A DNA stretch of 64,000 nucleotides, taken from contig CM059431.1 in the NCBI GenBank assembly GCA_030390025.1, forward strand, positions 149,360,001-149,424,000. Reading direction: 5' to 3'. Made by a program: the position numbers and the translations under genes. Source of the stretch: Squalus acanthias. Taxonomy: Eukaryota. The stretch's first letter is position 1. Every line of letters begins with the position of its first letter. Shown piece after piece: positions 35,440-64,000 of the stretch. The notes under the pieces are model-generated. The model searched no databases and was not told where the DNA came from. It saw nothing but the letters and a program-made list of their open reading frames with translations.

Positions 35440-36115
35440 TTACTGAGCAACAAAGAACGGAACAGTTCCAGCAATCCTCTCTGGTCTCTGCTGAACTATC
35501 GCATCTCATCTGCTGTCTGTATTTAACACAAAACATGTAAACTGATCCATCACAAAGAAACTGCTCCAGTATCAATTAACTCAACGAGAATCCTTAAAGG
35601 TAGACATTGCCCGAAAGTGATGCCATAGCTCGGCCTGATTCAGGGATCATTAATTGTTGGATTAAAACATTAACCCAATGGCCTTACTGATGCCACAGAT
35701 TCAAAGAATATTCCAGTCTGAATATAGCAATCACATTGAATAAATAATTAAAACGTAAAAGCACGGCATTCTCGGCACTGACATCACTAAACAGCCAACT
35801 GTGTAAGATACAGCTCAGAACAATGGGGCTGATTCCTCATAAAGACTATAGAAAAGCAGTCATACCGTGAAATACATATTTACACAGTTCGGGACTGTCC
35901 AGAAACATTCAGTCACCACACAAGTTGACGGTGTAAGATATAAATCAACTTCGGTCCTAATAACGATTACATATGCCCGCACTTTCTGTGAGAAGTGGCG
36001 ATTTCTGTTCTTCTTGGAGTAGTTGCTGTAGGCTTGATTGGATGACTGATTTGCACACAAAATAAACCTACACTGAGAAGCTCTATTCACATGATCCGAT
36101 TAGTGTCAGTAAGGT
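35440..36115. repeat. Non-satellite cassette, copy 4 (right-truncated)
   Basis: Matches the left three-quarters of copy 1. Confidence 0.88.
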
Positions 36116-43579: not shown

Positions 43580-44270
43580 ACTAGTCTGCTTATGTTCTCC
43601 TGAAGCCTACTACTTTCCAACTCAGTGTTTACTACACTTCCTAGTTTTCTGTCATCGGCAAACGTTCAATTTATGCCCTTTATATAAGACTATATGATTA
43701 ATATTCATCAAAAAGATCAGTGGTCCGAATAGCGAACCTGGGGGACACCACTGTATTCTTCCCTTCAGTGTGAACAACATTCATTTAACAATTCGCTTTG
43801 TTCTCTGAAGCTTAGCCAATGTAAGATCCCCACTGCCATTGCCCCATTTGTCCTAACAAGTTTATGCAATGGACTTATTAAATGACTTTCTAAAGTCCAT
43901 ATACACAACATCAACCACACTACACTCATTAACCCTATACGTTAGTTCATCAAAAACTAAATCAAGATTGTCAGACACACCTTGCCGTTAACATATCCGT
44001 GCTGGTTGTCATTTATTAATCCATGTTTTTTCCAAGTGACAGATAATTATCTCCGAGAATATGGCCTCTAGAAGTGTCCCCACAACCTTCGTTAGCCTTA
44101 CTGGCCTTCAGTTACAGGGTTTATCCCTCTATTCTTTTTTTAAAAAGAGTGTAATTTTTGCAACAGTTAAATTCTCCGGCACCATTCCCATAACCAAGGA
44201 GGATTGAAAGAGTCTGGCTAATCCTGCGCTATTTCCATCATTCCATCCCTCAGTAACCCTCATACATCCC
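43580..44270 (-). mobile_element. Old CR1 RT fragment
   Basis: LFQSSL..GMVPE...VAKIT.F.KK and reverse-complement VDVVYMDF.KSF. Confidence 0.75.
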
Positions 44271-44329
44271 AAATCGGACTGCGGAATTGTTCTGCTTCTC
44301 TGGAGTACAAAACTTGTTGGATTGAAAGG

Positions 44330-44475
44330 CGTTAACTGAAGCTGCTTGTTCACTGACTGTAATTAATGCCAGTCTCCATGGGTTAACTGAAGCTGTTTGT
44401 TCAGTGACTGTAATTAATGTTCATCTCCATGGACCATAATTGCATCAGTGCAGGGTTTCCCTCTTCTATTTATGA
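44330..44475 (+). promoter_or_regulatory. Putative GPCR promoter: two 51 bp repeats with TAATTAA, plus TATA-like CTATTTAT
   Basis: TGTTCAnTGACTGTAATTAATG at 44347 and 44398, ~200-260 bp upstream of the ATG; the motif recurs at 63941. Confidence 0.55.
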
Positions 44476-44603
44476 GGTATTCCTTTCAATGTGTTATCCA
44501 GCAGTGACATGAGAGCATCACCTCCGGCACTAACAGGGATCAGCACGCTGCCTTACAGAGAGGGAGTCGGAATGTTAGAACAGTAGATTGGAATGTTACA
44601 ACA

Positions 44604-44784
44604 ATGGATCAGAAGCTGAGAACAATAGATTGGAATGATACAACAATGGGCAGGAGTTTCATGTGGGAGTTTAACATACTTTCTGCAGCTTATGATGGAC
44701 TATCATTACAATTGCGGATCAATTTCGCACTTAAGATTATTCAACACTTTTACTATCCGCTCCTTGCTGTTGTTGGTGTTCCTG
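44604..44784 (+). CDS. Coding exon 1 of a GPR139/GPR142-like class A GPCR (N-terminus plus first half of TM1)
   Basis: MDQK..WNDT..KIIQHFYYPLLAVVGVP then G|GTAAGT (phase 1). This resembles GPR139 YYSLLLCLGLP, where that gene's intron falls. Strong Kozak context ACAATGG and an N-glycosylation sequon. Exon 2 not found in the window. Confidence 0.8.
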
Positions 44785-45019
44785 GTAAGTCTTTCTGTCC
44801 AGCTATTCTATTCACCATATTTAACTGCATTAATGTTCTTGTCATTTACTCTCCCCTCGTTGTTGTTATTGTTGTTCCCGGTAAGTCTCTGCATCCAACT
44901 ATTAACTCTGCAACATTTGATAACTGCATTACTGTTCTTGTAATTTACTCTGTCATCTTTGCTCTGTTCATTCTTTATATCCAGCAATTAGATCTGTAAT
45001 CCTCGGAATAACCACCACC

Positions 45020-45310
45020 ATAACATCACCCGTCTTCGCCCCGTCTCAGACATTCCGCTGCAATAACCCCATTTGTGAAATCCAGAATCGACTATTCCAA
45101 TGCTTTCCTGGCCCGCCTCTCAGTTACAAGCCTCCATAAAATAGAGCTCATCCAAAACTCTTCTGTCCATATCCTAACACGCATCGTGACCCGTTCACGC
45201 ATCACTTTTGTGTTCGCTGAGCTACATTTGCTCCCGATCTGGCAACACCTCGAACTTAATATTCTCCTCCTTGTGTTCAAATCCCATCATGGCCTCACCC
45301 CTCCAAATTT
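45020..45310 (+). mobile_element. L2 LINE 3' ORF fragment
   Basis: SRIDYSNAFLA..LIQNS..ILTR..IT.V..LH.LP..ILLLVFK..GL.P. Confidence 0.85.
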
Positions 45311-45489
45311 GTCCCATTCCCCTGCTCTTTTCCCATAGTCCTGCAAATTGCTTTCCTTCAAGTATTTATCCAATTCCACTTTAAAAGGTATTTTATTTTT
45401 TCACTGTACCTCTACCAGTCTTTCAGTCTCTATTTTTCTTTCTCTCTTTCTCTTGCTCTCTCCATCTTCTCTCTCTCTGTGTCTCATGC

Positions 45490-45860
45490 TCGTAGAACCA
45501 TTAAATGGTATAGCACAGAAGGAGGCCATTCGATCGGTTGTGTCCATGCCGTCTCTTTGAAAGGGCTATCTAATTAGTCCTAATCTTTAGCCAGATCCCT
45601 GTAATAAATTCCCCTTCAATTACTAATCTAATTCCCAGTCGAGACGTGAATTTGCTAACATCAGGTTCTCAGACAGTGCATTGCTGATCACAACAACTCA
45701 CTGCATAAGAACATTCTCCTCAGCTCTCCTCTGTTTTTTTCCCAATTACCTTAAATCTGTGACCACTGGTTCCCCATCCTTCTGCCACTGGAAACAGTTT
45801 CGACTTATGTACTCGATCAAAACCCATCATGATATTTATCATCATTATTAAAACTCCCAT
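45490..45860 (-). mobile_element. CR1 3' fragment
   Basis: GFDRV...KLFP.AEG..T.GHRFKVIGK. Confidence 0.75.
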
Positions 45861-46701
45861 TATGTTAAAGGACATGGATAGAAGATGTGTAAAATGTCTC
45901 AACTGCAGGAAGCCTAATTTTACTCAGCTGCGACTTCATTTATCAAAAGTAGATTGGAAACAGTTAATTTAAGGGAAATCAGTGGCAGCAGTGGGAAGCA
46001 TTCAAGAAGTAGATAGTGAGGTTTCGGAGCAAATATGTTTCCACAACGAAATAGGATGAGAACCCAATTCTAGAGACCCCTGGATGTCAAGAATCATAGG
46101 TGGTAGGATAAGGAGAAAAAGGGAAGCATTTGACAGATACCGATAGCTCAATACTACAGACAGCCCAGAGGAGTGTAGAAAGTGTAGGGGTGAAATTACA
46201 AATGAAATTAGGAAGGCAAAGAAAGGGCAGGAAAAATATTGCCAAGGTGATTTTGTGACTGGAAGGCTGTTTCCAGTGCGATTCCGCAGAGCTCCGTTGT
46301 AAGTACCCTTGCCTTTTGTGGTATATATCAATGATCAATACGTCAATGCTGAGGCCATGATTAAGAAGTTTGTAGATGATACAAAAATTGTCCGTGTAGT
46401 TGATAGTGAGGAAGATAGTTGTAAACTGCAGGAAGATGTCAATGGACTGGTTAGAGGGGCAGAAAAGTTTAAAATGGAATTCAATCCAGTGAAGTGTGCG
46501 GTGATACATTTGGGAAGGGTTAACAAGGCAAGGGAATACACAGTAAATGCTGGGGAAATGAAAAGTGTAGAGCAACAGAGGGACCTTCGAGTGCATGTCC
46601 ACAGATCCCTAAAAGTTGCAGGACATGTAGATGGGGAGGTTAAGAAGGCATATGGGATTATTTCGTTCATTAGACAAGGCACAGAACATAAGAGCAGGGA
46701 A

Positions 46702-47284
46702 CACCTCCGTTCAGTCCGTAAGGGGGACCCCGAGCTCCCGGTGGCCTGTCACTTTAATTCACCGCTTCACTCCCACTCTGACCTCACCGTCCTCGGCCTA
46801 TTACACTGTTCCACGGAAGCTCAGCGTAAGCTCGAGGAACAGCACCTCATCTTTCGTTTAGGCACGCTACAGCCCTCTGGACTCAATATCGAGTTCAACA
46901 ATTTTAGATCATAACCTCAGCTCCAATCACATTTATATTTTATTTTATCCACCCTTTTATTTGTCCCCCCCCCCCCACCTTTTTTTTTCCTCCTAGAAGC
47001 TGGCAGCTGTCCTTCATTCTGCCAGTGGATTTCACACTTAATTCAGCCTTAATCTGTCACGTTAACACCACCTCTAGCCTTGCATATCTCTTAATGTCTC
47101 TTCATCTCCCCCTTTGTTCCTTTATCCCCTCCCCCTTTTCCCAGCTTTACCCTGGCCTTAAATCTATTTGATTTCCGGCTCTTCCCAGTTCTGATGAAAG
47201 GTCATCGACCTGAAACGTTAACTCTCTTTCTCTCTCCACGGATGTTGCCTGGCCTGCTGAGTTTTTCCAGCGTTTTCTGTTGTT
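46702..47284 (+). mobile_element. Penelope-like element 3' fragment (GIY-YIG C-terminus plus 3' repeat region)
   Basis: EHLRSV..LPVACHFN..H..RKLEEQHLIFRLGTLQPSGLN; flanked by a direct repeat ATAAGAGCAGGGAA (46688-46701 and 47285-47298). Confidence 0.9.
47187..47223 (+). ncRNA. Minimal hammerhead ribozyme (Penelope type)
   Basis: AGTT-CTGATGA-A-AGGTC atc GACCT-GAAAC-GTT-AACT: conserved core, stem II, palindromic stem III and a 4 bp stem I. Confidence 0.8.
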
Positions 47285-47460
47285 ATAAGAGCAGGGAAGT
47301 TGTGCTAGAACTGTATAAAACACTAGTTAGGCCACAGCTAAGAGTAATGCATACAATTCTGGTCACCACATTAAAGCAAAGATGTGACTTCACTCGATAG
47401 TTTACAGAAGAGATTCACGAGGATGTTGCCAGGACTGGTTGAATTTTAGCTATGAGGAAA

Positions 47461-47920
47461 GGGAGGCCCGAGGCTCAGGTAGGCCTCAGACCAGCGTCGA
47501 CAGCGGGGGAGGAGGAGCCTTTCTTTCTTTCTCTCTCCCACAGAGCGGTCGGCAGCGGGGAAGGAGGGGCGGACCTGGTTGGAGCGGCAGAGGCCTGAGG
47601 TGAGTCATTAAAGGGAGGCCCGAGGCTCAGGTAGGCCTCAGACCAGCGTCGACAGCGGGGGAGGAGGAGCCTTTCTTTCTTTCTTTCTCTCTCCCACAGA
47701 GCGGTCGGCAGCGGGGAAGGAGGGGCGGACCTGGTTGGAGCGGCAGAGGCCTGAGGTGAGTCATTAAAGGGAGGCCCGAGGCTCAGGTAGGCCTCAGACC
47801 AGCGTCGACAGCGGGGGAGGAGGAGCCTTTCTTTCTTTCTCTCTCCCACAGAGCGGTCGGCAGCGGGGAAGGAGGGGCGGACCTGGTTGGAGCGGCAGAG
47901 GCCTGAGGTGAGTCATTAAA
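47461..47920 (+). repeat. Three near-identical 152-156 bp CR1 5'UTR monomers
   Basis: Units start at 47461, 47613 and 47769; they differ by one TTTC unit. Confidence 0.95.
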
Positions 47921-47980
47921 CTCACCTACGTGGCCTTTTTCCCCAGCGGGGAAAGAGCTTCGCGGGCTTTTTCAAAGGCA

Positions 47981-48014
47981 GGGGGCGGGGCCAATTCATT
48001 GGTACCCGTATATA
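47981..48014 (+). promoter_or_regulatory. Putative internal Pol II promoter of CR1
   Basis: GC box GGGGCGGGG, CCAAT at 47991, inverted ATTGG, TATATA at 48009. Confidence 0.45.
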
Positions 48015-48205
48015 GGTGGAGCGGTTGCTAAACCCGAGACACTACACTAGTAGTGACTCCCACCCTCCCACCTCCTCTAACCTTTAGGGGTAGAGGGAAT
48101 TTAAAAGGTAGGTTCGATTTTATATTTTGTTTTCAGGGACTTAACTCCTGGACCTAAGATAAATAAGTTTAAATTTTAGTAAGAAAGTAACATAAGGGTT
48201 AAGTC

Positions 48206-49150
48206 ATGACAGGAAGTCTCGGACCCGTTTCATGCTCCTCCTGTGCCATGTGGGAAACCAGGGACACTTCCAGTGTCCCTGACAACTATGTGTGCGGGAA
48301 GTGTGTCCAGCTGCAGCTCCTGACAGCCCGCATGGCGGTGCTGGAGCTGCGGGTGGACTCACTCTGGAGCATGCACGATGCCGAGAACTCGGTGAATCGC
48401 TCATTTAGTGAGTTGTCCACACCGCAGGTAAAGGCTAGGACAGACAGTGAATGGGTGACCAAGAAGCAGGGCAATATCAGGAAGGTAGTGCAGGAGCCCC
48501 CTGTGGTCATCTCCCTCCAAAACAGGTATGCCGCTTTGGATACTGTTGGGGGAGATGGCCTACCAGGGGAAGGCACCAGCAGCCAGGTTCATGGCACCAT
48601 GGCTGGCTCTGCTGCACAGCAGGGCGGGAAAAAGAGTGGTAGGGCTATAGTGATAGGGGACTCAATTGTAAGGGGAATAGACAGGAGTTTCTGTGGCCGC
48701 AACCGAGATTCCAGGATGGTATGTTGCCTCCCTGGTGCAAGGGTCAAGGATGTCTCGGAGCGGCTGCAGAACATTCTGAAGAGGGAGGGTGAACAGCCAG
48801 CTGTCGTGGTGCATGTAGTTACCAACGATATAGGTAAAAAGCGGGAAGAGGTCCTACAAGCAGAATTTAGGGAGCTAGGAGCTAAATTAAAAAGTAGGAC
48901 CTCTAAGGTAGTAATCTCTGGATTGCTACCAGGGCCACGTGCTAATCAGAATAGAGAAAACAGGATAGTGAGATTGAATACGTGGCTTGAGCAGTGGTGC
49001 AGGAGGGAGGGATTCAAATTCCTGAGGCATTGGAACCAGTTCTGGGGGAAGTGGGACCTGTACAAAAGGGACGGTCTGCACTTGGGCAGGATTGGAACCG
49101 ATGTCCTCGGGGTAATATTTGCTAAAGCAGTTCGGGAGGATTTAAACTAA
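48206..49150 (+). CDS. CR1 ORF1p (zinc finger/leucine zipper plus SGNH esterase)
   Basis: CSSC..CGKC, heptad leucine repeat, IVIGDS, CLPGA, HVVTND (usually GTND) and DGLH. Confidence 0.93.
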   Translation: MTGSLGPVSCSSCAMWETRDTSSVPDNYVCGKCVQLQLLTARMAVLELRVDSLWSMHDAENSVNRSFSELSTPQVKARTDSEWVTKKQGNIRKVVQEPPVVISLQNRYAALDTVGGDGLPGEGTSSQVHGTMAGSAAQQGGKKSGRAIVIGDSIVRGIDRSFCGRNRDSRMVCCLPGARVKDVSERLQNILKREGEQPAVVVHVVTNDIGKKREEVLQAEFRELGAKLKSRTSKVVISGLLPGPRANQNRENRIVRLNTWLEQWCRREGFKFLRHWNQFWGKWDLYKRDGLHLGRIGTDVLGVIFAKAVREDLN

Positions 49151-49197
49151 TATGGCAGGGGAATGGGAACCTATGTAGCGAAACAGGGGGAAGTAAT

Positions 49198-52134
49198 ATG
49201 CAGTCAGAAACAAATGTTAGAAGGGTGAGAAACAATAGGGGAAGGCCGAGTAAACAAAGGCAAGAAACACAAAGGGCCATACTAAATCATAAGTCTAAAA
49301 GGACAAAGGATGTTAATAAAACAAGCCTAAAGGCTCTGTGTCTTAATGCAAGGAGTATCCGTAATAAGGTGGATGAATTGACTGTGCAAATAGATGTTAA
49401 CGGATACGATGTGATTGGGATTACAGAGACGTGGCTCCAGAACAATCAAGGCTGGGAACTGAACATCCAGGGGTATTCAACATTCAGAAAGGATAGAATA
49501 AAAGGAAAAGGGGGTGGGGTAGCATTGCTGGTTAAAGAGGAGATTAATGCAATAGCTAGGAAGGACATCAGCTTGGAGGATGTGGAATCAATATGGGTTG
49601 AGCTGCAGAACACCAAAGGGCAGAAAACGTTAGTGGGAGTTGTGTACAGACCTCCAAACAGCAGTAGTGAGGTGGGGGAGGGTATGAAACAGGAAATCAG
49701 AGGTGCGTGCAAAAAAGGCACGGCAGTTATTATGGGTGACTTTAATATGCATATAGATTGGGCTACTCAAACTGGAAGCAGTACGGTGGAGGAGGATTTC
49801 CTGGAGTGTTTAAGGGATGGTTTCCTAAACCAATATGTTGAGGAACCAACTCGAGGGGAGGCCATCCTGGACTGGGTGTTGTGTAATGAGGAGGGACTAA
49901 TCAGCAATCTTGTGGTACGAGGCCCCCTGGGGAAGAGTGACCATAGTATGGTGGAGTTCTACATTAGGATGGAGAAGGAAACAGTAAAGTCAGAGACCAT
50001 GGTCCAGAACTTAAATAAGGGCAACTTTGAGGGTATGAGGCGTGAATTGGCGAGGTTAAATTGGCAAGCGATATTTAAGGGGCTATCAGTGGAAGGGCAA
50101 TGGCAGACATTTAGAGATCGCATGGATGAACTACAACAATTGTACATCCCGGTCTGGCATAAAAATAAAAAAGGGAAGGTGGCTCAACCATGGCTAACAA
50201 GGGAAATCAGGGATAGTATTAAAACCAAGGAAGTTGCATACAAATTGGCCAGAAGTAGCAGCAAACCCGGGGACTGGGAGAACTTCAAAACTCAGCAGAG
50301 GAGGACGAAGGGTTTGATTAGGGCAGGGAAAATAAAATATGAAAGGAAGCTTGCAGAGAACATTTAAATGGACTGCAAAAGCTTCTATAAATATGTAAAA
50401 AGAAAGAGGTTAGTAAAAACAAACGTAGGTCCCCTGCAGTCGGAAACAGGGGAAGTCGTAATGGGGAACAAGGAAATGGCAGATCAATTGAACAAGTACT
50501 TTGGTTCGGTGTTTACTGTGGAGGACACACACAACCTGCCGGAAATAAAAGGGGTCAGAGGATCTGGTAAGAGGGAGGAGCTGAGGGAAATCCTTATTAG
50601 TCAGGAAAAGGTATTGGGGAAATTGATGGGACTGAAGGCTGAAAAATCCCCGGGGCCTGATGGTCTGCATCCCAGAGTACTTAAGGAGCTGGCCTTGGAA
50701 ATAGTGGATGCATTGACGATCATTTTCCAACATTCCTTAGACTCTGGATCAGTTCCGATGGAGTGGAGGGTGGCCAATGTAACCCCTCTTTTTAAAAAAG
50801 GAGGGAGGGAGAAAGCAGGGAATTATAGACCGGTCAGCCTGACATCGGTCGTGGGTAAAATGATGGAAGCAATTATTAAAGATGTCATAACAGACCATTT
50901 GGAAAGTGGCGACATGATAGGTCCAAGTCAGCATGGATTTGTGAAAGGGAAATCATGCTTGACAAATCTTCTGGAATTTTTTGAGGATGTTTCCAATAGG
51001 GTGGACAGGGGGGAACCAGTAGATGTGGTGTATTTGGACTTTCAGAAGGCCTTCGACAAGGTCCCACACAAGAGATTGGTGAGCAAAGTTAAAGCACATG
51101 GGATTGGGGGTAATGTGTTGACGTGGATTGAGAACTGGTTGGCACACAGGAAACAAAGAGTAGGAGTAAATGGGTACTTTTCAGAATGGCAGGCAGTGAC
51201 CAGCGGGGTACCGCAGGGTTCGGTGCTGGGACCCCAGCTGTTTACATTATATATTAATGATTTGGACGAAGGGATTAAATGTAATATCTCCAAATTTGCG
51301 GATGACACTAAATTGGGAGGCAGTGTGAACAATGAGGAGGATGCTAGGAGGCTACAGAGTGACTTGGACAGGTTGGGTGAATGGGCAAATGTATGGCAGA
51401 TGAAGTACAATGTGGATAAATGTGAGGTTATCCACTTTGGTGGTAAAAATAGAGAGGCAGACTATTACCTGAATGGTGGCAGATTAGGGAAAGGGGAGGT
51501 GCAACGAGACCTGGGCGTCATGGTACATCAGTCACTGAAGGTGGGAATGCAAGTGCAGCAGGCAGTCAAGAAAGCAAACGGAATGATGGCCTTCATAGCA
51601 AGGGGATTTGAGTACAGGAGTAGGGAGGTGATGCTACAGTTGTACAGGGCCTTGGTGAGGCCACACCTGGAGTATTGTGCGCAGTTTTGGTCTCCTAACT
51701 TAAGGAAGGACATTCTTGCTATTGAGGGAGTGCAGCGAAGGTTCACTAGAATGATTCCTGGGATGGCCAGACTGACATATCAAGAAAGATTGGGTCAACT
51801 GAACTTGTATCCTCTGGAGTTCAGAAGAATGAGGGGGGATCTTATAGAGACATTTAAAATCCTGACTGGTTTAGACAAATTAGATGCGGGCAGAATGTTC
51901 CCAATGGTAGGGGAAACTAGAACCAGGGGTCACAGTCTAAGGATTAAGGGGAAGCCATTTAGGACTGAGCTGAGGAGGAACTTCTTCACCCAGAGAGTGG
52001 TGAATCTATGGAATTCTCTTCCACAGAAGGTTGTTGAGGCCAGTTCGCTAAATATATTCAAAAGGGAGTTAGATATAACACTCACAACTAAGGGGATCAA
52101 GGGGTATGGCGAGAAAGCAGGAATGGGGTACTGA
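49198..52134 (+). pseudogene. CR1 ORF2 (APE endonuclease plus RT) with one in-frame TAA at 50365-50367
   Basis: LNARS, ITETW, YRPP, MGDFN, SDH; QGSVLGP, FADD. Both halves are in the same frame. Confidence 0.93.
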
Positions 52135-52539
52135 GGTAGCATGTTCAGCCATGAACGCATTGAATGGCGGTGCAAGATCGAAGGACCGAATGGTCTATTC
52201 CTGTACCTATTTTCTATGTTTCTATGTTTCTATGAAAGATTGGATAGGATGGGGCTGTTACTTTGGAACAGAGGAGGCTGAGCGGAGATTTAATTAAGCA
52301 GTATAAATTTATGAGCGACCTCGATAGAGTGGATAGACAGCATCAATTTCTCTTAGCCGTGCGGTCAATAACCAGCGGGCATAGAGTAAAATGTAATTGT
52401 TAGAAGGATTAGAGGGGAGATGAGGTGATTTTTTTTCAACAAGGGTGCGGATCTGGAAAGTGGGATTAGGCTGGATCGCTTTTTCAATCGGCGCACACAC
52501 GATGGGCCTAATGGACTACTTCTGTGCAGGAAAATTTCT

Positions 52540-53335
52540 ATGATTCTATGTTTCTGTTTTTCTAACCTTCCCGGCTCTAAAATGAATAATCCCTGCTTCG
52601 CCAGTTTCTCCACCTAACTGACGTCACAGATCGCTGGAACCTTTCTGGTAAATCCCAACACCTTCTCTAATCATTGACATGCTTCCCAAAGTTTGGCGCC
52701 CAGAATTGGACACAATGCTCCAGCTGGGGCTTAACCAGTGATTTATGAAATGTTAGCATTTTTTCCTGGATTTTGTTACATTGTGTCTCTGTTTTAAACC
52801 CAAGGAATCAGTATGTTCTTTTATTTGCCGTTGCAACTTGTCCTGCCACCCTCACCAATTTGTGTAAGTACAGCCCAGGTCACACAGATCGTACACCGGC
52901 TTTAAAATTGAACCATTTAATTTAAATTGCCTCTGCTCATACCTCCTACCAAAATGTTACAATTCACTCTTCTCTGTATTAAATTGTATCTTCCATGTAT
53001 CGGCCCATCTCTTCAGTCTGTCTGTGTCCTCCTCAAGACTGTTGCTACCCTTCTGATTGTTTATTAAGATTGCTGACATCAGCAAACGATTAAATTATGC
53101 GTTGAATACCCATGTCTATGGCATTGATGTACATGGAAAGAGCAATGCCCCCAACAAGGACAGCTGGTGAACACCACTGAATACTTCCAACCAGTCTGAA
53201 CAACAACCGTTAACCACTACTCTCTGCTTTCTGTCTCTTAGCCAAAATCCGAGCCATGTTGCCACTGCCACTTCAATCACTTGGACTTCAATTTTGTTTT
53301 CATGTGATACTTCATCAAAAACCTTTTGAAAGGAT
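52540..53335 (-). mobile_element. Old CR1 fragment
   Basis: FQKVFDEVSH and WLRDRKQRVVVNG motifs. Confidence 0.8.
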
Positions 53336-53636
53336 AGCGAAATTGGGAAAGTGTGGGCAAGTAGAATCATAGAATTGGTGAGACAAGATGTGTTGACGCC
53401 CCGCTCTGATCACAGGCCTCATTCCCATTTTATTATTGAAATTCATTTATTCTCAGGGTATTGTAAAGCTTTCAAGGCAGGTATTACTTGCCCTTTCCTA
53501 GAAACCCATGAGAAAATGGTGGACTTTCTTCTTGAACCGCTGCAGTCCGTGTGGTGAAGGTTCTCCCACAAAACGGTTACGGAAGGAATTTTAGGCTTTT
53601 GATGCTGTGACTATAAAGGAATGGCGATATGTTTGA

Positions 53637-54045
53637 AGGGTACGGTAGCATAGTGGTTATGCTGCTGGACTAGTAAACCAGATACCTGGACAGATGATCC
53701 AAAGTCCACCAGCTGGGGAATTTAAATTAAATTAATTAAACAATTCAGTTTGAAAAAGTGAGTGTCGATAATGGTGAGCATGACACTACCAGATTGTCGT
53801 AAAACCAATCTGGTTCACTGATGTCCTTCCCGGAAGAAAATCTGCTGTCCTTACCCATTCTTGACGAAATGTGCTCCAGACCCAAATCAATGTGCTTGAG
53901 TATTAACAGCTCCTCTGAAATGGCCTAGCAAGCCTCTCAGTTGTATACGCTGGCTCATCATAACATTCTCAATGGCAGTTAGGGAAGGGAAATAAATGCT
54001 GGCCTTGCCAGCGACGCCCACACCCAAGAATGATTTTTATTTTAA
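53637..54045 (+). mobile_element. tRNA-derived SINE, same family as 22572-22950
   Basis: GGTAGCATAGTGGTTATG head, CTGGTTCACTGATGTCC body and ATAAATGCTGGCCTTGCCAGCGACGCCCAC tail. Confidence 0.85.
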
Positions 54046-54289
54046 GTGCATTACTGGATGCTGTGTGAGTTGAAGGGAGTAATTGGAGGTGGTGCTCGTT
54101 TGAGCTACAGTCTGGCCGAATTCTGCTCCCTCGCCTGTGCCTCCTCCACCTGATGCCAGTTGTAGGAATCCAGCTGCAGCCCTGCGGGTGAAAGGTACTT
54201 ACGGTAATATACTAAACAGAAACAATCTAACGTTTGGCATTTTCGGGATACAAGTCCTTTACTGGACACTTGTAAATGATTTGGGGCTG

Positions 54290-54425
54290 AACACGAGAGG
54301 AGAATTTTATAATCGAGGCATTGCCGAACCGGTAGACAATGTAAGTCAGCGAGCAGAGGGGTGATGTTTGAACGGGACTTGGTCCGAGTTAGGACAGGGA
54401 CAGCAGAGCTTTGGATCAGAAAGAA
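54290..54425 (-). mobile_element. L2 LINE fragment
   Basis: LIQSSA..VLTRTKSRSNITPLLADLHCLPVRQCLDYKILL. Confidence 0.8.
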
Positions 54426-54664
54426 ATGATTGGTATTTATGTTAGATATAACCTTATATCTCTGCACGCCTGGAGCTTCTGTCACGGAAGATAACAAATA
54501 ACTCTGAATGGGATCAAGCTGAAACTTTGAGAGGCAAAGTCTAAGCCGAATTCCTCAGCATGCTGTGACATTTGATATGTGCCGATGTCGGAAGACAAGG
54601 GCCGAGATATTCGTCTCGGGCGGTGCCGCTAAATGTGTGGTGGCGCTAAACGGGCGGTATTCGA

Positions 54665-56092
54665 TCATAACAACATAAGAATTAGGAGCAGCGGTAGACC
54701 GTTTGGCCCTTCAAGCCTGCTCCGCCATCAAGTTTGATCATGGCTGATCTTGTACCTCATCTCCACTTTCCTGCACTATCCCCATAATCCTTGATTCCCT
54801 TAATATTCAAAAATCTATCGAACTCTGTCTCGAATATACTCAACGACTGAGCCTCCACAGCCCTCTGCGGTAGAGAATTCCAAAGATTCACCACCCTCTG
54901 AGTGAATAAATGTCTCCTCATCTCAGTCCTAATTGGCCGACCCCTTATTCTGAGACTGTGACCCCTGGGTCTAGGTCCCCGAGCCAGGGGAAATATCCTC
55001 TGTGCATCTACCCTGTCAAACACTTTAAGAATTGTGTATGTTTCAATGAGATCACCTGTCATTCTTCTAAACTCTAGAGAATATAGGCGTAGTTTACTCA
55101 ATCGCTCCTCATAGGTCAATCCCCAATCCCAGGAACCAGTGTGGTGAACCTTCTTTGAACTACATCAATGACAAGTATATCCTTCATTAGTTAAGAAGAC
55201 CAAAACTGCACACAGCATTCCAGGTATGGTCTCGCCAGGGCTCTATATTTGCAGTATGACGTCTTTACTCGTATACAGGAATCCTCTTGTAATAAATGCC
55301 AAAATACCATTTGCTTTCCTAATTGCTTCCTGTACCTGCATGTTAACTTTCAGTGATTCGTGTACGAGGACACCCAAATTCCCAATGAACAGCAACACTT
55401 CCCAATCTCTCACCATTTGAAAAATGCTCTGCATTTCTATTTTTCCTACCAAAATTGATAACATCATATTTCTCCATGTTGTAGATCATTTGCCATGTTC
55501 TTGCACACTCACTTAGCCTATCTATATCCCCTTGAAGCCTTTTTGCATCCTCTTCACAACTTACATTCCCACCCAGCTTTGAATCACCAGCAAACTTGGA
55601 TATATTACATTTGGTCCCCTCTTCCAAATCATTGACGCAGATTGTGAATAGCTGAGGCCCAAGCAGTATTCCTTGCGGTTCCCCACTAGTTGCAGCCTGC
55701 CAACAGGAAAATGACCCATTTATTCTTACTCTTTGATTTCTGTCCGTTAACCAATCCTAAATTCATGTTAGTATATTATCCCCAATCCTAAATTTGTTTA
55801 AAAATTTCTTGTGTGGCACTTTATCGAATGCCTTCTGAAGATCCAAATACACCACATCCATGATCCCCTTGTCTATACCGCTAGTTACAATCTCAAGATC
55901 TGTCAAACACAATTTCAATGTTATAAATCCGTGTTGACGCTGCCCAATTCTGTTACAATTTTCTAAGTGCCCTGTTATGAAGTCCTTAAAAATAGATTCA
56001 AGCATTTCCCTAATACTGATGTCAGGCTAACTGGTCCGTGGTTCCCGTTTTCTCTCTCCCTCCATTCTTAAATAGTGGGGTTACATTTGTTA
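54665..56092 (-). mobile_element. CR1 3' half
   Basis: Tail at 54665; YSLEFRRM.GDLIETY, CNISKFA and VYLD.QKAFDKVPH motifs. Confidence 0.92.
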
Positions 56093-56339
56093 CCTGCGTT
56101 ACACGCAGCTCCTTATATTCAGTTCCACCGCAGTCAATGAAGGATTTCTAGGCGAAGGTCTTCAATTCTTAACACTAATATTCCAGCAAAGGTGTCTCCG
56201 TAGCTCTTTGAAGCCACTTCTGTGTCAAAGAACTAGTCTCTGTAATCCTGCAACATCAGCACCACTGTGGTCCCAAACCGCATGGTTCCCTGTTTAAAAA
56301 AAACAATATCCATTCCGGCTCTTCTTAACATTCAATGAG

Positions 56340-58065
56340 CTTCTAGACAAAAGGGAGGAGTCACAGCCAGTGACACAGAAACATTGATAATGGCTTTTTA
56401 AAGAGACTACCAGTAAAACAGGTTTTCTAAAGAGCCAAGCCAGTCAGGCTTTTTGAAGAGAGAGGACCAGAGACACAGGCTTTTTAAAGGGACAGAACAC
56501 TTCACACAGGCTTTGTAAAGAGACAAGATCAGTCACACGGACGCTTTAAGGAGACAGGACCAGTCACATAGCCTTTTTAAAGAGAGAGGAGCAGTCACAC
56601 TTGCTTTTAAAAGAGACTGGAGCTGTCAATCAAGAATTTTTAAGAGAAAAGACCAGTCACACAGGCTTTTTAAATAGACTGGACCTGTCACTCAAGAATT
56701 TTAACAGAAAAGTCCAATCACACATGGTTTTTAAAGAGAAAGAACCGGTGACACAGGCTTTCATAGAATCATAGAATAGTTACAGCAGGGATGAAGAACA
56801 TTCGGCCCGTCGAGCCCACGTCGGCTCTGTGCAAGACCACGTCAGCTAGTCCACTCCCCTGCTGTTTCCCCCTGCATTGTTTTCATCCAGGTACTTATCT
56901 AACTCTCTTTTGAAAGCCTTGATTACTACGCCTGCACCCCCATTTTAGGCAGTGCTTTCCAGATCCTAACCACTTGCTGTGTAAAAAGTTTTTTTTCCTG
57001 ATGTCGCCTTTGGTTCTTTTGCCAATCACCTTAATTCTGTATCCTCTGGTCCTCGACCCATCTGCCAATGGGAACAGTTTCTCCTTATCTGTTCTGTCCA
57101 GACCCATCATGTTTTGAACACCGCTATCAAATCTCCTCTCAAACGTTTCTGCTTCAAGGAGAACAACGCCAGGTTCTCCAAACTATCTACGTACCTGAAG
57201 TCCCCCATCCCTGGAATCATTCTCGTAAATCTTTCCTGCACTCTCTAAAAAGGTCTTCACATCCATCCTGAAGTGCGGTGCCAAGAATTGAACACAATAC
57301 TCCAGTTGAGGCCAAACCAGTGTTTTATAATGGTTCATCACAATTTCCACGCTTTTGTACTCTATACCTCTATTCATGAATCACAGGATCCTGTAAGCTT
57401 TTTTAACTGCTTTCTCAAACAGCCCTGCCAACTTCAATGATTTGTGCACATATACCCCGCTGGTATCTCTGTTCATTCACAACCTTTAGGATTGTATGCT
57501 TTCGTTTATATTTCCTCTCCTCACTGTTTCTACCAAGATGTATCACTTCCCTTTTTTCTGCGTTAAATTTCATCTGTCACGTGTCAGCCCATTCCACGAG
57601 CATGTCTATTTACTCTAGAATTCTATCGCTATACTACTTACTGTTTACTATATTATTAAAGACACAGGACCAGTCACAGAGATTTTTTAAAGAGACATAA
57701 TCAGCCTTACAGGCTATTAAACAGACATAACCAGTCACACAGATGTTTAAAGTTCCAGGGTAGTCACACAGGTTCTATACAGAGACAAAACCATTCGCAG
57801 AGGCCTTTTAAAGTGAAAGGAACACTCACAAAGGCATTTTCAAGGAACATGATCAGACACACAGGCTTTTTAAAGAGACAGGACCAGACACACAGGCTTT
57901 TTAAAGAGACAGGAACAGTCACATGGCTTTTGAAAGAGACATGGCCTGTCACGCAGGCTTTTTAAACAGACAAGACCAGTCACCGAGGCTTTTTGAACAG
58001 ACATGGCCAATGTCACAGGTTTTTAAATGAGAAATGACCAGTCACACAGGCTTTTCAAAGAGAAA
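56340..58065. repeat. 31 bp minisatellite split by a CR1 insertion
   Basis: ACACAGGCTTTTTAAAGAGACAGGACCAGTC units at 56340-56761 and 57655-58065. Confidence 0.9.
56762..57655 (-). mobile_element. CR1 3' fragment
   Basis: CATAGAATCATAGAAT tail; GIEYKS..YKTLV.PQLEYCVQF.APHFR motif. Confidence 0.9.
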
Positions 58066-58082
58066 AAATAGTATCAGCAAAA

Positions 58083-58149
58083 GGGCCTAGAAATTCCTTC
58101 TCTGGCGATTGCACAAAACACATGTTTTTTTATCGGAAATTCTAGGCCC
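58083..58149. mobile_element. 67 bp MITE-like remnant with 15 bp terminal inverted repeats
   Basis: GGGCCTAGAAATTCC ... GGAAATTCTAGGCCC (one mismatch). Confidence 0.6.
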
Positions 58150-58269
58150 CCATAGCTGTCCTTACAGATTATTAGATCATTAATGTTCGTTCACAAAATC
58201 TAATCTGGTCCTGAATATGACCCCTTACAATCTGCTTATTTTGCAGACTATTAATTTTAATATGTTTAG

Positions 58270-58725
58270 TTCATGGAAAGTGGGTAATGCTGGCAACACC
58301 AGCCAATCCCTAATTGTCCTTGAGAAGGTGGTGCTGAAACAATACCTTGAACCGCTGCAGTCCTTGTGGTGAAGATACTGCCCAGTCTCTGACTTTTGTA
58401 CAACTGAGTGTCTTGCTAGGCCATGTCAGAGTGCAGTTAAGATTCAACCGCATATGGGCAGCCCAAGTAAGGATGGCAGGTTTCCATCCTTAAAGAACGT
58501 TATCGAACCATTTGGGTTTTTCCTGACAATCCTGTAGTTTCATGATCTGCATTACTGATACTAGATTTTTTATTCCAAATGTATTTAATTAACTGAATTT
58601 AAATTCCCCTGCTGTCGAAGTGCGATTGAACTCAAGTCTCATAGTTTATTAGTCCAGGTCTCTGGATTACTAAGATAGCAAAATACTGCAGATGCTGGAA
58701 ATCCGAAAACATAACTACCATGCTG
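58270..58725 (-). mobile_element. tRNA-derived SINE, reverse copy
   Basis: Reverse complement of the 53637-54045 family. Confidence 0.8.
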
Positions 58726-59267
58726 ATGTACTCGGTGTCTACAAATAGTACCCCATAACACTATTGACTTCTCGGTGTTGGAGATGCTTTGGGGATTCAG
58801 GAGGTGAGTTACTCAACGCAGAATACCCAGCCTCTGACCTGCTGTAGTAGCCGTGGCATTTATGTGGCTGGTCCAGTTGATTTTCTGATCAATGGCTGCC
58901 CCTCGGGATTTGATGTTGGAGGATTCGGTGATTGCAATGCCAATGACTGTCAAGTTTAGATTATGTCTTGTTGGAGGTTGTCATCGTCTGGCGCTTGTGT
59001 GGAGAGAAGGTATCATGAATTACACCAGGGATGAGGGATTTCAGTTATGTGGAGAGACTGGAGAAGCAGGGATTCTTCGCCGTGGAGCAAAGAAGTCTAG
59101 GGGGAGATTGAATAGAAGTGCTCAAAATGTTGAGGGTTTTTAAAGAATAATTAAGGAGAAACTGTTTCCACTGACTGTCTTGTCATTAGCAAAAGGACGA
59201 ACCTTGATCGCGCAATAAGATAATCTGGAATGAACTCTCTGAAAGGTTGGTGGAAGCAGATTCAATC

Positions 59268-59777
59268 GGTTCAGTGGGTAGCAAACTCACCACTAAATCA
59301 TAAGGTTATGGTTTCAAGTCCCTTTCCAGCGACGTGAGTCCAAAAATCTAGTCTCAAACTCTCGTGCAGTACTTAGGAAGCACTGTACTCTCAGAGGGGC
59401 CGCACGAAGGGTGCGCTGAACTGACAGAGGCTCAGTACTGAGAGACCAATGCACTGTCGGAGGGGCAGTTCTGAGCGAGCGCTGCACTGTCGGAGGGGCA
59501 ACTCTGAGCGAGCGCTGCACTGTCGGAGGGGCAGTACTGACCGAGCGCTGCACTGTCGCAGGGGCGTTACTGAGCGAGCGCCTGCACTGTCGCAGGGGCG
59601 TTACTGAGGGAGTACTGTGTTGTCGGAGGGGTCGTCATTCGGATGCGACTTTAAACCAAAGCCATGTCTGCTCTCTTAAGTGGATGTATAAGATCCCAGG
59701 GCAACATATGAAGAAGAGCAGTGGAGTTATCCCCAGTGTTCTGGCCAATATTTATCTCAATCAACATCACTAAAACA
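59268..59777 (+). mobile_element. Deu-domain tRNA SINE (SacSINE1-like), 5' part, with expanded ~33 bp internal repeats
   Basis: GGTTCAGTGGGTAGC head, GTTTCAAGTCCC B box and GTACTGAGnGAGCGCTGCACTGTCGGAGGGGCA repeats; continues at 62853. Confidence 0.8.
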
Positions 59778-62700
59778 GGAACTAAGTGCCACAAAGCATA
59801 TTTGAAAGTTCTCTATCTGAATGCACGTAGCATTCGTAACAAAATAGTCAAGTTAATGGCACAAATAACTACATATGGTTATGATATTGTGGCCATTACA
59901 GAAACATGGCTGCCGGGTGACAATGCCTGGGAATTAAACATACCAGGTTATTTAACGATCAGGAAGGACAGGCAGGAATGAAGGGGAGGTGGGGTGGCTA
60001 TGTTAATAAAGGAAGGAATCACTGTAATACAGAGTAATGATATTGGGTTAAAAAATCATGATAATGAAACAGTTTGGGTGGAGATAAGGAATAATAAGGG
60101 GAAAAAAAACACTAGTTGGCGTAGTCTATAGGCCTCCGAACAGTTGCAACTCTGTTGGACGGAGTATCAATCAGAAAATAGTTGAGGCATGCAATAAGGG
60201 AAGATCTATAATTATGGGGGATTTTAACTATCATATTAATTGGACAAATCAAATGGGGCAGGGCTGCCTTGAGGATGAGTTCATTGAGTGTATTAGGGAT
60301 GGGTTTCTTGAGCAGTATGTAACTGAACCGACCAGGGGGCAAGCAACCTTAGATCTGGTCCTGTGTAACGAGACAGGATTAATTAAAAATGTCCTAGTAA
60401 AGGATCCCCTTGGAATGAGTGACCATAACATGGTTGAATTCCATATTCAATTAGAGGGTGAGAAGGTTGGATCTCAAACAAGCGTGCTAAGCTTGAATAA
60501 AGGATACTATGAAGGTATGCGAGCGGAATTGAGTAGAGTGGATTGGGAAAATAGATTAAAGGGTAAGAAGACACATGATCAGTGGTGTACATTCAAGGAG
60601 TTATTTTACAACTGCAAAAAATATATATTCCACTGAAAAGAAAAGGGTGTAAAAGAAAGGACAGTCATCCGTGGCTAAGTAAAGAAATTAAATATAGTAT
60701 TCGACTAAAAACAAGGGCATATAAGGTAGCGAAATCTAGTGGGAGGACAGAGGATTGGGACAAATTTAAAAGGCAGCAAAAAATAACAAAAAGATTGATT
60801 AAGAAAGGGAAGATAGATTATGAAAGTAAATTAGCAAAAAATATAAAAACAGATAGTAAGAGTTTTTATAGTTATATAAAAAGAAAAAGGGTGGCTAAAG
60901 TAAATGCTGGTCCCTTAGAGGATGAGACCGGGAAATTAATGGTGGGAAATATGGAGATGGCAAAAACACTGAATGAATATTTTGTAACAGTCTTTACAGT
61001 AGAGGACACTAAGAATATCCCAACACTGGACAAACAGGGGGCTATAGGGGGAGAGGAGCTAAACACGATCAAAATCACTAAGGAAGTGGTACTCGGTAAA
61101 ATAATGGGACTCAAGGCGGATAAATCACCTGGACCTGATGGCTTACATCCTAGAGTCTTGAAGGAAGTGGCGGTAGGGATTGTAGATGCATTGGTAATAA
61201 TTTTTCAAAACTCCCTGGATTCCGCTAAGGTCCCGGCAGACTGGAAAACTGCTAATGTAACACCCTTATTTAAAAAGGGCAGTAGACAGAAGGCTGGTAA
61301 CTATAGACCGGTTAGCCTAACATCTGTGGTAGGTAAAATTTTGGAGTCCATTATTAAGGAAACAGTAACAGGACATTTGGATAATCATAATTTAATAGGA
61401 CAAAGTCAGCATGGTTTTACGAAGGGGAAGTCATGTTTGACAAATTTGCTGGAGTTCTTTGAGGAAGTAACATATAGAGTGGATAAAGGGGAACCAGTGG
61501 ACGTAGTGTTTTTAGACTTCCAAAAGGCATTTGACAAGGTGCCACACAAAAGATTATTGCTTAAGGTAAAAAATCTCAGGATTGGGGGTAATATTCTGGC
61601 ATGGATAGAGGATTGGCTATCTAACAGAAAGCAAAGAGTTGGGATAAATGGTTCATTCTCAGACTGGCAATCAGTAACTAGTGGTGTTCCACAGGGGTCA
61701 GTGCTGGGTCCCCAACTCTTTACAATCTATATTAACGATTTGGAGGAAGGGACCAAGTGTAACATATCAAAATTTGCAGATGATACAAAGATGGGAGGGA
61801 AAGTAGTGAGTGAGGAGGACATAAAAAACCTGCAAGGGGACATAGACAGGCTAATTAAGTGGGCAGAGATTTGGCAGATGGAATACAACACTGGAAAGTG
61901 TGAGGTGATGCACTTTGGCAGGAAAAATCCTAGAGCAATTTATTATCTTAATGGCAAGAAACTGGAGAGTACTGAAGTGCAAAGGGATCTGGGGGTCCTG
62001 GTGCACGAAACTCAAAAGGTTAGTATGCAGGTGCAGCAAGTGATTAAGAAGGCAAATGGAATGTTGGCTTTCATTGCTAGGGGGATAGAATATAAAAATA
62101 GGGAGGTATTGCTTCAGTTGTACAAGGTATTGGTGAGACCGCACCTGGAATACTGCATACAGTTTTGGTGTACTTACTTAAGGAAAGACATCCTTGCTCT
62201 CGAGGCAGTGCAAAAAAGGTTCACTCGGTTAATCCCTGGGATGAGGGGGTGGTCATATGAGGAGAGGTTGGGTAGATTGGGACTCTACTCATTGGAGTTC
62301 AGAAGAATGAGAGGCGATCTTATTGAAACATATAAGATTGTGAAGGGGTTGGATCGGTTGGATGCGGGGAGGATGTTCCCGATGACGGGTGAGACTAGAA
62401 CTAGGGGACATAGTCTTAGAATAAGGGGCTGCTCTTTCAAAACTGAGATGAGGAGGAACTACTTCACTCAGAGGGTGGTAGGTCCATGGAATATGCTGCC
62501 ACAAAAAGCTGTAGAAGCTACATCATTAAATAAATTTAAAACAGAAATAGACAGTTTCCTAGAAGTAAAGGGCATTAAGGGTTACGGGGAGCGGGCAGGA
62601 ATTTGGACATGAGTCTAGGTTCGGATCCGGTCATGGCCCTGTGGGTAGTGGAGCGGGCCCAGGGACCGTGTAGCCTGATTCTGCTCCTATTTCGTGTGTG

Positions 62701-62852
62701 CATTTCTGTTAGATGCAGGAGACGGTTCTGTGATAGATAGTAGATTGGCGGTTAGGATCAGATCAGCCATGATCTTATTGAATGGCGGAGCAGGCTCGAG
62801 GGGCCGATTGGCCTACTCCTGCTCCTATTTCTTATGTTCTTATGTTCTTATG
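59778..62852 (+). mobile_element. 5'-truncated CR1 with disrupted endonuclease and open RT region
   Basis: TGA at 59979 and frameshifts near 60110 and 60620; open frame to 62612; (TTCTTATG)n tail. Confidence 0.95.
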
Positions 62853-63012
62853 TAGATGAACTGGTCGTTATTTCAACACTGTTTGTGGGAACTTGCTGTG
62901 CACAAATTGGCTGCCGTGTTTACTACAGTACAACAACTGACTTCAATTCAACCGTACTTATTTGGCTGTGAAGTGCTTTCGGGTCATCCCAAGTTCGTGA
63001 AAGGCGCTCTTT
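62853..63012 (+). mobile_element. Deu-domain SINE, 3' part
   Basis: TTGCTGTGCACAAATTGGCTGCCGTGTTT ... GTGAAAGGCGCT. Confidence 0.8.
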
Positions 63013-63129
63013 CTTAGTAATAAGTTTCAAAAGGTAATACGATATATACGTGAAAAGGAGAAATTTTCAGGACTTTGAGGAAACTGTTTAATTATTTACT
63101 ACCATTCACGAAAGGATATGACAGCTTTG

Positions 63130-63430
63130 AAATAATCATATCGGTTGCCTGAAGATGTGCTGATTCATCAGCTGAATGATGGCGGTCGGTGGTAATCAGC
63201 AGGAAGTGACCTTGCCCATGTCTGAATGGAAGCCATGAGACTTCATTATGTCCTTAGGCAAATTTGAGGCCTCGCAGGATCTCTCCCAGTCGACTGTATA
63301 CCCCTGTCCACCCAACTCTGTTGGGTCTGTCCTACTTTAGGAACAGGATATACCCTGAGATGGTGATGGAGGAGTCGGGAATGTTGAATGATAGGTATGG
63401 TTCTGTGACTATTATTGTGCGAGAATTCAA
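63130..63430 (-). mobile_element. LINE endonuclease fragment
   Basis: Reverse complement resembles the CR1-clade endonuclease N-terminal region (..RQDRPNR.GG.). Confidence 0.5.
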
Positions 63431-63699
63431 TGTTTCCAGAGCGATTCATTGAGTATTGAGACAGTGACAGGGTATGTATGTCATTGGTTAATATTTTAAG
63501 CAGTACCCTTTGATTACTTGGTGTAAAACCATTTATCGTTTGATTATGTTCTCTCCCTCTGTAAAGCACCATTATAGGATTGGCTTTTTGAGGTCAATCA
63601 TTAGAAACACCATGTTGTACTTGTTCTAGATTCAGGCAAATTGAATGCCCTGGGAATCAACTTGTTGGACAAAGACGGGAACATGAAATCCTGGCAGCC

Positions 63700-63830
63700 C
63701 TGGGAATGAAATTCCTGTATTGAGGCGGGAGCTGTGTAATCTAGGGGTTGCTGGGAATAGAATTCCTGGAGTGAGGCAGGAACAGTTTAATCTAGGCGGC
63801 GCTGAGCATAACATTCCTGGACTGAGGACG
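63700..63830. repeat. ~51 bp tandem repeat, ~2.5 copies
   Basis: TGGGAAT..AATTCCTG..TGAGGC.GGA...GT.TAATCTAGG units. Confidence 0.75.
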
Positions 63831-63940
63831 GGTGAAATGTTGTGCATACGCTCACTTTTAATTTAAAGCTGTGTACAATAATGTGAGCTAGGTTGAGTTG
63901 CAGTGAAGTTTTGGGGTGACAATGGATAAATGAGTCTGGG

Positions 63941-64000
63941 TGTTCAATGACTGTAATTAATGCCAGTTGCAGTGAGGCCTAATGATGTCACTCGGGGATT
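63941..64000 (+). promoter_or_regulatory. Paralogous copy of the GPCR upstream motif
   Basis: TGTTCAATGACTGTAATTAATGCCAGT matches 44347-44373 at 26 of 27 bases. Confidence 0.6.

Follow-up and report, generated by a model that had tools for sequence, protein, structure and literature searches.

The data suggest that the coding exon at positions 44604-44784 of the 64-kb stretch of Squalus acanthias DNA analysed here (the window) is the orphaned first exon of a GPR139-like receptor gene in a birth-and-death cluster, with the element at 63941 being the promoter of the next paralog, a reading to which we give slightly better than even credence. In this scenario, positions 44284-45004 would represent the 5' half of one shark GPR139-like gene (promoter, 5' UTR, exon 1 and the start of intron 1), and its own seven-transmembrane (7TM) exon would be gone. 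The simplest cause would be a deletion that joined repeats of intron 1 to repeats behind the gene, so recent that exon 1 has not yet acquired a lesion. The 63941 element would drive a more distant paralog with its own exons past 64000. Should the orphan promoter fire, the donor of exon 1 would presumably meet cryptic acceptors or polyadenylation signals in two sense LINEs, which are more probable partners for it than a receptor exon more than 19 kb away. Against the orphan reading, exon 1, its donor and its promoter are all intact, as they would be in a live gene, and no deletion breakpoint was identified in the window. The original prediction had left open an orphan exon or a cluster of variable first exons; the orphan fits better, with a single canonical exon 1 and no exon-2 remnant in the window.

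Exon 1 lies on the + strand, begins with an ATG at 44604-44606 and comprises 60 codons plus one nucleotide. It ends CCT G/GTAAGT, the G at 44784 being the last coding nucleotide (phase 1) and the GT at 44785-6 opening a phase-1 splice donor (44785-44790, +). Its product consists of a 14-residue N-terminal repeat with an N-x-T sequon, a variable ectodomain and the first half of TM1. The exon belongs to a shark GPR139-like class A GPCR because: (i), a family profile built from 120 exon-1 peptides matched it over profile positions 1-60 with 109.6 bits (iE 2.2e-33); (ii), a protein search with the exon-1 peptide retrieved P0001 (E 3e-18); (iii), the consensus residue is kept at all 12 of the 12 columns conserved in more than 80% of 184 family proteins; and (iv), the phase-1 intron that the family requires in the codon preceding the TM1 Asn is present at 44784/5, the matching junction being exactly where the N-terminus of RefSeq isoforms P0257 and P0279 switches. 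The predicted GPR139-like assignment, with two coding exons split in TM1, is thus supported by the profile, the P0001 match and the junction. A search for an annotated protein that begins with this exon gave one match among 16 candidates, 63% identical, which is weak evidence. Judged from its sequence, exon 1 encodes 60 residues typical of the N-termini in the 'probable GPR139' receptor expansion of sharks: like shark and ray models bearing the automatic NCBI/UniRef name 'probable G-protein coupled receptor 139' (e.g. P0001 of Pristiophorus japonicus, P0004 of Heptranchias perlo and P0092 of Heterodontus francisci), it has a first exon of 60 residues with the 14-residue N-terminal repeat, the YYP..G.P end and the junction before the TM1 Asn. 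The closest exon-1 core among the 184 family proteins is 67% identical to it.

The 3' end of the exon and its donor are repeated in a 96-bp tandem duplicate (44845-44951, +; TRF; 79% over 107 bp), which provides another phase-1 donor at 44880/1, in frame and 32 codons further on, that had been overlooked at first. This duplicate is common to paralogous contigs (X3 record 22, X1 record 8), and a peptide reading through it was absent from the 216 proteins searched. The final stretch of intron 1 with paralog likeness is 44952-45004 (+), as delimited by the loose end of one paralog, which matches 44975-45004 at 24/30, and by repeat contigs, which set in from 45012 on; the DNA after 45004 is repeat-derived.

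Upstream, the promoter adjoins an old CR1-type LINE fragment (43655-44283, - strand, right end approximate), detected by tBLASTn with the window's reverse transcriptase (RT) as query (43655-44221, 35% identity). Next comes a 51-bp tandem duplication (44331-44432, +; TRF period 51, 2.0 copies; motif scan) that holds two copies of a conserved upstream motif with a TAATTA core, at 44347-44373 and 44398-44424, the second copy having five mismatches and having been missed in the original prediction. A TATA-like element (44467-44474, +) is a putative core promoter, and an out-of-frame upstream ATG opens a 25-codon uORF (44509-44586, +) in the probable 5' UTR. When contigs from three same-label runs (X1, X2 and X3) were compared with 44260-45060 at 80% likeness (40, 21 and 7 contigs), contigs mostly 80-95% alike piled up on 44305-44477 in all three runs, and only 2/68 were at least 99% alike. 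These contigs cross the donor into the intron and cover the promoter, and therefore behave as DNA of paralogs; among the loose-end rows listed (18 of 29) none showed a joint at 44784, which has no bearing on splicing. Two run-X3 contigs on 44275-44338 continue into similar LINE-like letters, so that the LINE/promoter junction is not private to the 44604 copy, and a 5' truncation of the promoter by a private LINE insertion was rejected. X3 record 19 spans 44315-44469 gap-free and so includes the 51-bp duplication. As the motif, the doubled motif and the doubled donor are all common to paralogous contigs, neither doubling could be retained as a mark of decay. In one contig each of X1 and X2, a difference at 44507 and an additional base after 44509 abolish the uORF ATG; its absence from these two paralogous contigs is the only hint, and a weak one, that the exon-1 gene is decaying.

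The family requires an exon 2 of about 300 codons downstream, and, unlike the shark and ray models, the 44784 donor has no 7TM exon within 19.2 kb nor elsewhere in the window. Neither an intact nor a moderately decayed 7TM exon 2 turned up in the 64 kb: tBLASTn of the window with P0001 returned no exon 2, 120 exon-2 sequences set against the six frames (stops as X) gave at best an iE of 1.1 by HMM and an E of 0.044 by tBLASTn, and an HMM from 23 divergent relatives found none (best iE 1.9). The domain search was carried by these family-specific HMMs, a whole-frame Pfam scan being without result. In sensitivity controls (iE<0.01), 80-residue fragments of exon 2 were recovered in 60/60 cases at 40% randomisation and 53/60 at 60%, 40-residue fragments in 48/60 at 40%, and 25-residue fragments in 15/60 at 40% and 0/60 at 60%. 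Acceptors followed by x-N occur at 20 sites in the gap, none of them like a TM1 continuation. The predicted absence of exon 2 between 44785 and 63940 is thus borne out by tBLASTn and two HMM searches with controls. The accompanying claim that only repeats lie downstream of the donor is largely correct, LINE protein matches or self-repeats covering at least 71% of 44785-63940. The two sense LINEs alone contribute about 7.9 kb. One is young and nearly full-length (47458-52234, +, ends approximate), with 152-bp 5' tandem repeats containing acceptor-like sites, an open ORF1 and an ORF2 with a single in-frame stop; its features suggest that it is of CR1 type. The other (59769-62852, +), also CR1-type, consists of endonuclease pieces and a 677-codon RT frame. 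The + strand of the gap further contains acceptor-like sites, 47544 and 47947 in LINE sequence among them, and 12 AATAAA hexamers.

The original prediction also held that the 27-bp motif of 44347-44373 recurs at 63941-63967 with one mismatch and in the same orientation. Motif comparison confirmed this (chance expectation ~6e-10 under a uniform base model), and BLASTN extended the match to 41 bp at 85% but no further. Given that the motif is common to many paralogous contigs, the recurrence most likely marks the next gene, which is consistent with the proposed paralogous promoter element: 63927-64000 (+) would be a second family-motif unit, which the window edge truncates and which probably serves as promoter to a more distant paralog, and we infer a second exon 1 behind it. 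In run X1, loose ends agree with 63968-63997 in 29/30 positions and with 63917-63935 in 17/19. Just upstream lies a short tandem array (63650-63832, +; TRF; 51-bp period, 3.6 copies), the like of which was not found upstream of the 44347 unit. A period scan of this array gives 51 only, and the similarity of its half-units was reached by 2/1000 shuffles; since the halves are weakly related, each 51-bp period may have arisen from a 25-26-bp unit that doubled and then diverged.

An unlikely alternative is an ordinary two-exon gene with a LINE-inflated intron 1 and an exon 2 past 64000; the 63941 element would then be the relic of a promoter, inside intron 1 and lacking an exon 1. The intact exon 1 and donor and the LINE-derived length agree with it, and so does the X1 contig on the 63941 element, which continues for at least 255 letters with no second piece listed on 44374-45060 at 80% likeness. 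However, some divergent subfamilies have short first exons and likewise would not match the 44604 exon 1 at 80%, and the 63941 element has an upstream array of its own.

How the family is built was examined in the annotated proteins of other sharks. Among 8000 candidates scored, 2151 clusters reached E<=1e-20, and all 120 clusters among the matches listed were from sharks. Exon 2 is itself multiplied, with 220 distinct sequences in 228 usable proteins (of 285). In the six groups with identical exon 2, exon 1 differs by only 0-4 of 46 residues, and over 16,836 pairs from 184 proteins mean exon-1 identity is 0.89 where exon 2 is 95-99% identical and 0.46 where it is 70-80% identical. Of the two exons, the first varies more (mean pairwise identity 0.47, against 0.72 for exon 2), a point in favour of a variable-first-exon cluster. 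The comparisons of exon 2 with exon 1 nevertheless suggest that the family grows by duplication of whole two-exon genes, with the proviso that the sample is biased towards top matches and chosen clusters, comes from annotated relatives rather than the Squalus acanthias genome, and rests on automatic gene models, which are blind to extra first exons without RNA support. Exon 2 occurs without a canonical exon 1 in 14/214 models, as loose halves or failed gene models would give. P0431, a peptide from a 2-kb JGI/IMG contig that has exon 1 alone and continues into the intron, was considered as an orphan in another shark and not counted, because it is probably an unspliced ORF call. Discordant pairs, few of which were inspected, indicate that the two exons are sometimes reshuffled or mis-modelled: 32 pairs combine an exon 2 at least 93% identical with an exon 1 below 80%, and two show the reverse.

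Such reshuffled pairs, for example P0042/P0104 (exon-1 core 52%, exon 2 95% identical), lend some weight to an improbable reading in which the locus has come by accident to hold two promoters. Exon 1, having lost its own exon 2, would skip the promoter and first exon of the neighbouring gene, an exon with no acceptor, and splice to that gene's 7TM exon, so that one receptor body had two N-termini. The two units lie on the same strand, the phase-1 donor fits a family exon 2, there is no lesion, and in RefSeq isoforms P0257 and P0279 the acceptor of exon 2 is joined to different upstream leaders. Against this, splicing would have to skip more than 19 kb with two sense LINEs, acceptor-like sites and poly(A) hexamers; the two units share only 41 bp, so that the neighbour's body would be of another subfamily; and a second paralogous first exon served as the alternative N-terminus in 0/3 RefSeq isoform sets compared (P0224, P0412/P0435 and P0432 left out). 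If true, these two N-termini would both be glycosylated and would stem from different subfamilies. This would be an early stage of a variable-first-exon cluster within a huge, uncharacterised shark GPCR family, and would show how a deletion in a tandem array can set off protocadherin/UGT1-style architecture, in this case in a class A GPCR. It is doubtful to a greater degree that a misjoin in repeat-dense DNA parted exon 1 from exon 2: satellite and LINE sequence makes up the gap and a large share of the window as a whole, but there is no N in the window and no positive sign of a misjoin.

Least of all do we believe in an evolved cluster of the protocadherin/UGT1 type, with tandem promoter-exon-1 cassettes and one shared 7TM exon. 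Clustered protocadherins, UGT1 and GCNT2 are described as tandem variable exons with one common set of constant exons, and UGT1 clusters also contain pseudogene and relic first exons (PMC1885805). The Squalus exon resembles these in having a putative promoter of its own, a donor that could splice to a body downstream and a variable N-terminus in exon 1. The motif recurs ahead of each putative unit, which a cluster and independent family genes predict alike. Unlike them, the window holds no tandem array of similar first exons: the profile of 120 exon-1 peptides found no further exon 1 across the 64 kb, including the 44 kb upstream of 44604. The 'constant' exon is multiplied together with exon 1 across the sampled sharks, subject to the same annotation bias, and is identical only under near-identical first exons. 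The predicted variable-first-exon cluster therefore fails on both features.

Judged from pairwise scores, the shark family appears to form a lineage of its own rather than to be the ortholog of GPR139. Human GPR139 (PDB 7VUG, 9M42) is its only solved relative at E<=1e-10, and the TM1 segment 'YY..L...G.P.N..T..ILS' aligns between the two. There is no one-to-one likeness: the family has very many paralogs, and P0004, used because the window is without a 7TM exon, scored only 56.5 bits (E 2.3e-14) against human GPR139, whereas coelacanth and salamander proteins are nearer to the shark family (E 2e-34 to 3e-36). Fish and coelacanth orphans that may be related are named GPR210A/B in PMC6504862, and the ESM Atlas gives an automatic family name only. 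The literature covered, which lacked most subscription papers and supplements, yielded no paper on a shark GPR139-like expansion, and a term search of the available text of PMC10620051 returned no mention of GPCR or GPR. An orphaned exon 1 is in itself of little weight, half-genes being expected in tandem families with fast turnover. The shark GPR139-like family may be more interesting than the orphan exon, its 2151 clusters standing against the relative poverty in GPCRs that PMC8455134 describes for cartilaginous fishes.

The window exon is a real fragment of an already annotated receptor family, and the original prediction described it correctly: on the forward strand (44604-44784) it starts with ATG 44604, runs for 60 codons to the end YYPLLAVVGVP and is followed by G|GTAAGT, a phase 1 donor whose last exonic G is 44784. 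A TATA-like element is presumed in its promoter, and splice sites were read by the usual conventions. A search with the exon-1 peptide returned a single full-length relative, P0001 of Pristiophorus japonicus (63%, E 3e-18). Scoring 8000 candidates against P0001 gave 2151 clusters at E<=1e-20. The 120 of these that were listed come from sharks without exception, and most are auto-annotated as "probable G-protein coupled receptor 139". First exons of the family are built alike: 14-residue repeats bearing an N-x-T sequon are followed by a variable stretch and then by YYP..G.P. The window exon scores 109.6 bits against a profile built from 120 exon-1 peptides and keeps the consensus residue at 12 of the 12 columns conserved >80% in 184 proteins. 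Human GPR139 is only a distant relative of the family (56.5 bits) and coelacanth and salamander proteins are nearer, so the earlier label "GPR139-like" fits the family, but not necessarily "GPR139".

When three same-label runs (X1-X3) were aligned to 44260-45060 at 80% likeness, 68 contigs were obtained. They are mostly 80-95% alike and continue past the donor, and are thus paralogous DNA. They span the upstream motif, its 51-bp doubling, the junction of LINE and promoter, and the donor with its 96-bp doubling. Since all of these recur in the paralogous contigs, they are traits of the subfamily and not damage. The duplicated exon end (44845-44951), also common to these contigs, holds a second in-frame phase 1 donor 96 nt downstream that would add 32 mostly hydrophobic codons, and the peptide of this read-through was found in 0 of 216 annotated proteins. 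Two paralogous contigs lack the upstream ATG 44509, which hints weakly at decay of the window copy.

Exon 2, the ~300-codon 7TM exon of family genes, is absent from the window, as had been claimed for the 19 kb downstream: tBLASTn with P0001 matched exon 1 only. Six-frame searches for 120 exon-2 sequences, with stops read as X, gave at best iE 1.1 (HMM) and E 0.044 (tBLASTn), and an HMM of 23 divergent relatives reached at best iE 1.9 in the window. Sensitivity controls recovered 80-residue fragments in 60/60 cases at 40% randomisation and 53/60 at 60%, and 25-residue fragments in 15/60 at 40%; only small, heavily decayed relics could have escaped. The claim that the gap (44785-63940) contains only repeats stands for 71% of its length, covered by LINE protein matches or self-repeats. 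Paralog intron likeness stops near 45004. A young, nearly full-length sense LINE, presumably CR1-type like the second LINE at 59769-62852, occupies ~47458-52234 (+), with three 5' repeats of 152 bp each (97% match), an open ORF1 of 315 codons, an ORF2 interrupted once, by an in-frame stop that separates its endonuclease part from its RT part, and donor- and acceptor-like sites in its 5' region. A simple scan of the gap found acceptor-like sites and 12 AATAAA hexamers, which could end or divert a transcript from exon 1. A frame at 46700-46914 ends in what may be the GIY-YIG part of a retroelement of Penelope-like type, and a 31-bp satellite forms two blocks (56392-56761 and 57656-58063) with a LINE fragment between them. 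Elsewhere in the window lie ~19 kb of satellite (17800-37000), whose 79-82-bp units have diverged and form higher-order blocks, and a frame (2274-2744) that may be a fragment of a Harbinger/PIF-like transposase.

The repetition of the 27-mer at 44347 at 63941, on the same strand with one mismatch, was confirmed (chance expectation ~6e-10 under a uniform model); a third copy, with five mismatches, lies at 44398. BLASTN extended the 44347/63941 match to 41 bp at 85% only. When the flanks were aligned locally under looser settings, the score of 177 barely exceeded the highest value of 200 shuffles (169); similarity beyond the motif is faint at most. Two X1 loose ends, contig parts running off the match, fit the flanks of the 63941 copy (29/30 and 17/19) and probably represent one contig. 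Its tail would be at least 255 letters long, with no joint back to 44374-45060 listed; the 5' UTR and N-terminal repeats of the 44330 unit fall inside 255 letters of the motif. The missing joint despite so long a tail argues against a close sister relationship between the 63941 and 44330 units. The 63941 unit belongs to another subfamily, and subfamilies with a short exon 1 exist, or is a relic. About 110 bp upstream of the 63941 copy lies an array of 51-bp period, its unit halves weakly related (2/1000 shuffles reach their likeness), which may fit a gene start there; no comparable array was found near the 44347 unit.

PMC1885805 describes a variable-first-exon cluster as tandem variable first exons each spliced to a single common set of constant exons, and divergent N-termini on identical bodies are therefore expected. 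We compared relatives from a biased protein sample with automatic gene models, which would not show first exons that lack expression or support (184 usable of 216 proteins for identity, 228 of 285 for exon-2 distinctness). Exon-1 identity follows exon-2 identity (mean 0.89 at exon 2 95-99%, 0.46 at 70-80%; 184 proteins), and in the 10 exon-2-identical pairs exon 1 is at least 91% identical. The 228 proteins hold 220 distinct exons 2; in the 6 groups with identical exon 2, exon 1 differs at 0-4 of 46 residues. Exon 2 lacks a canonical exon 1 in 14/214 models. The label "isoform" occurs in none of 120 and 106 listed family rows and in 3/120 of another listing; in the three isoform sets with both forms to compare, the other N-terminus comes either from a shorter version of the same exon or from an unrelated short leader joined where exon 2 begins, and a further paralogous exon 1 is used in none. 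Among the 184 proteins, 32 pairs combine an exon-2 identity of 93% or more with an exon-1 identity <80%, the reverse holding in 2. In P0042/P0104 exon 1 is 52% identical vs 95% for exon 2; separate contigs and 14 differing exon-2 residues rule out alternative exons of one locus. P0028/P0079 are also discordant (98% vs 81%). Both pairs suggest that paralogs have exchanged sequence across the intron, or that the gene models are in error. Thus both testable features of the proposed cluster fail: the 64 kb hold a single exon 1, the profile of 120 exon-1 peptides finding no second, and in the annotated relatives sampled the 7TM exon is itself multiplied.

We consider birth-and-death turnover somewhat the best-favoured account: whole two-exon genes would have duplicated, the window copy would have lost exon 2 by deletion, and its promoter and exon 1 would have been left standing before the next gene. 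No breakpoint of this putative deletion was found. The intact exon 1 is equally compatible with a long-intron gene enclosing a promoter relic, which we regard as unlikely, and with accidental splicing onto the neighbour's exon 2, slightly less likely still. A misjoin of the assembly is improbable. An evolved variable-first-exon cluster is very improbable; at most, such an architecture would be a local feature. Among the papers listed in a literature search for tandem receptor genes whose first exons are alternative or shared, none was relevant.

Paralogs differ in how many 14-residue N-x-T repeats they carry (0-8 in 216 proteins, counted with a rough pattern), and N-terminal length and predicted glycosylation would therefore be diversified inside ordinary genes. 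Among the articles listed in our literature search, none dealt with a shark GPR139-like expansion, though supplementary tables may name such genes. According to PMC8455134, GPCRs are relatively few in cartilaginous fishes, a statement that fits poorly with a family of >2000 sequence clusters of class A GPCRs in sharks.
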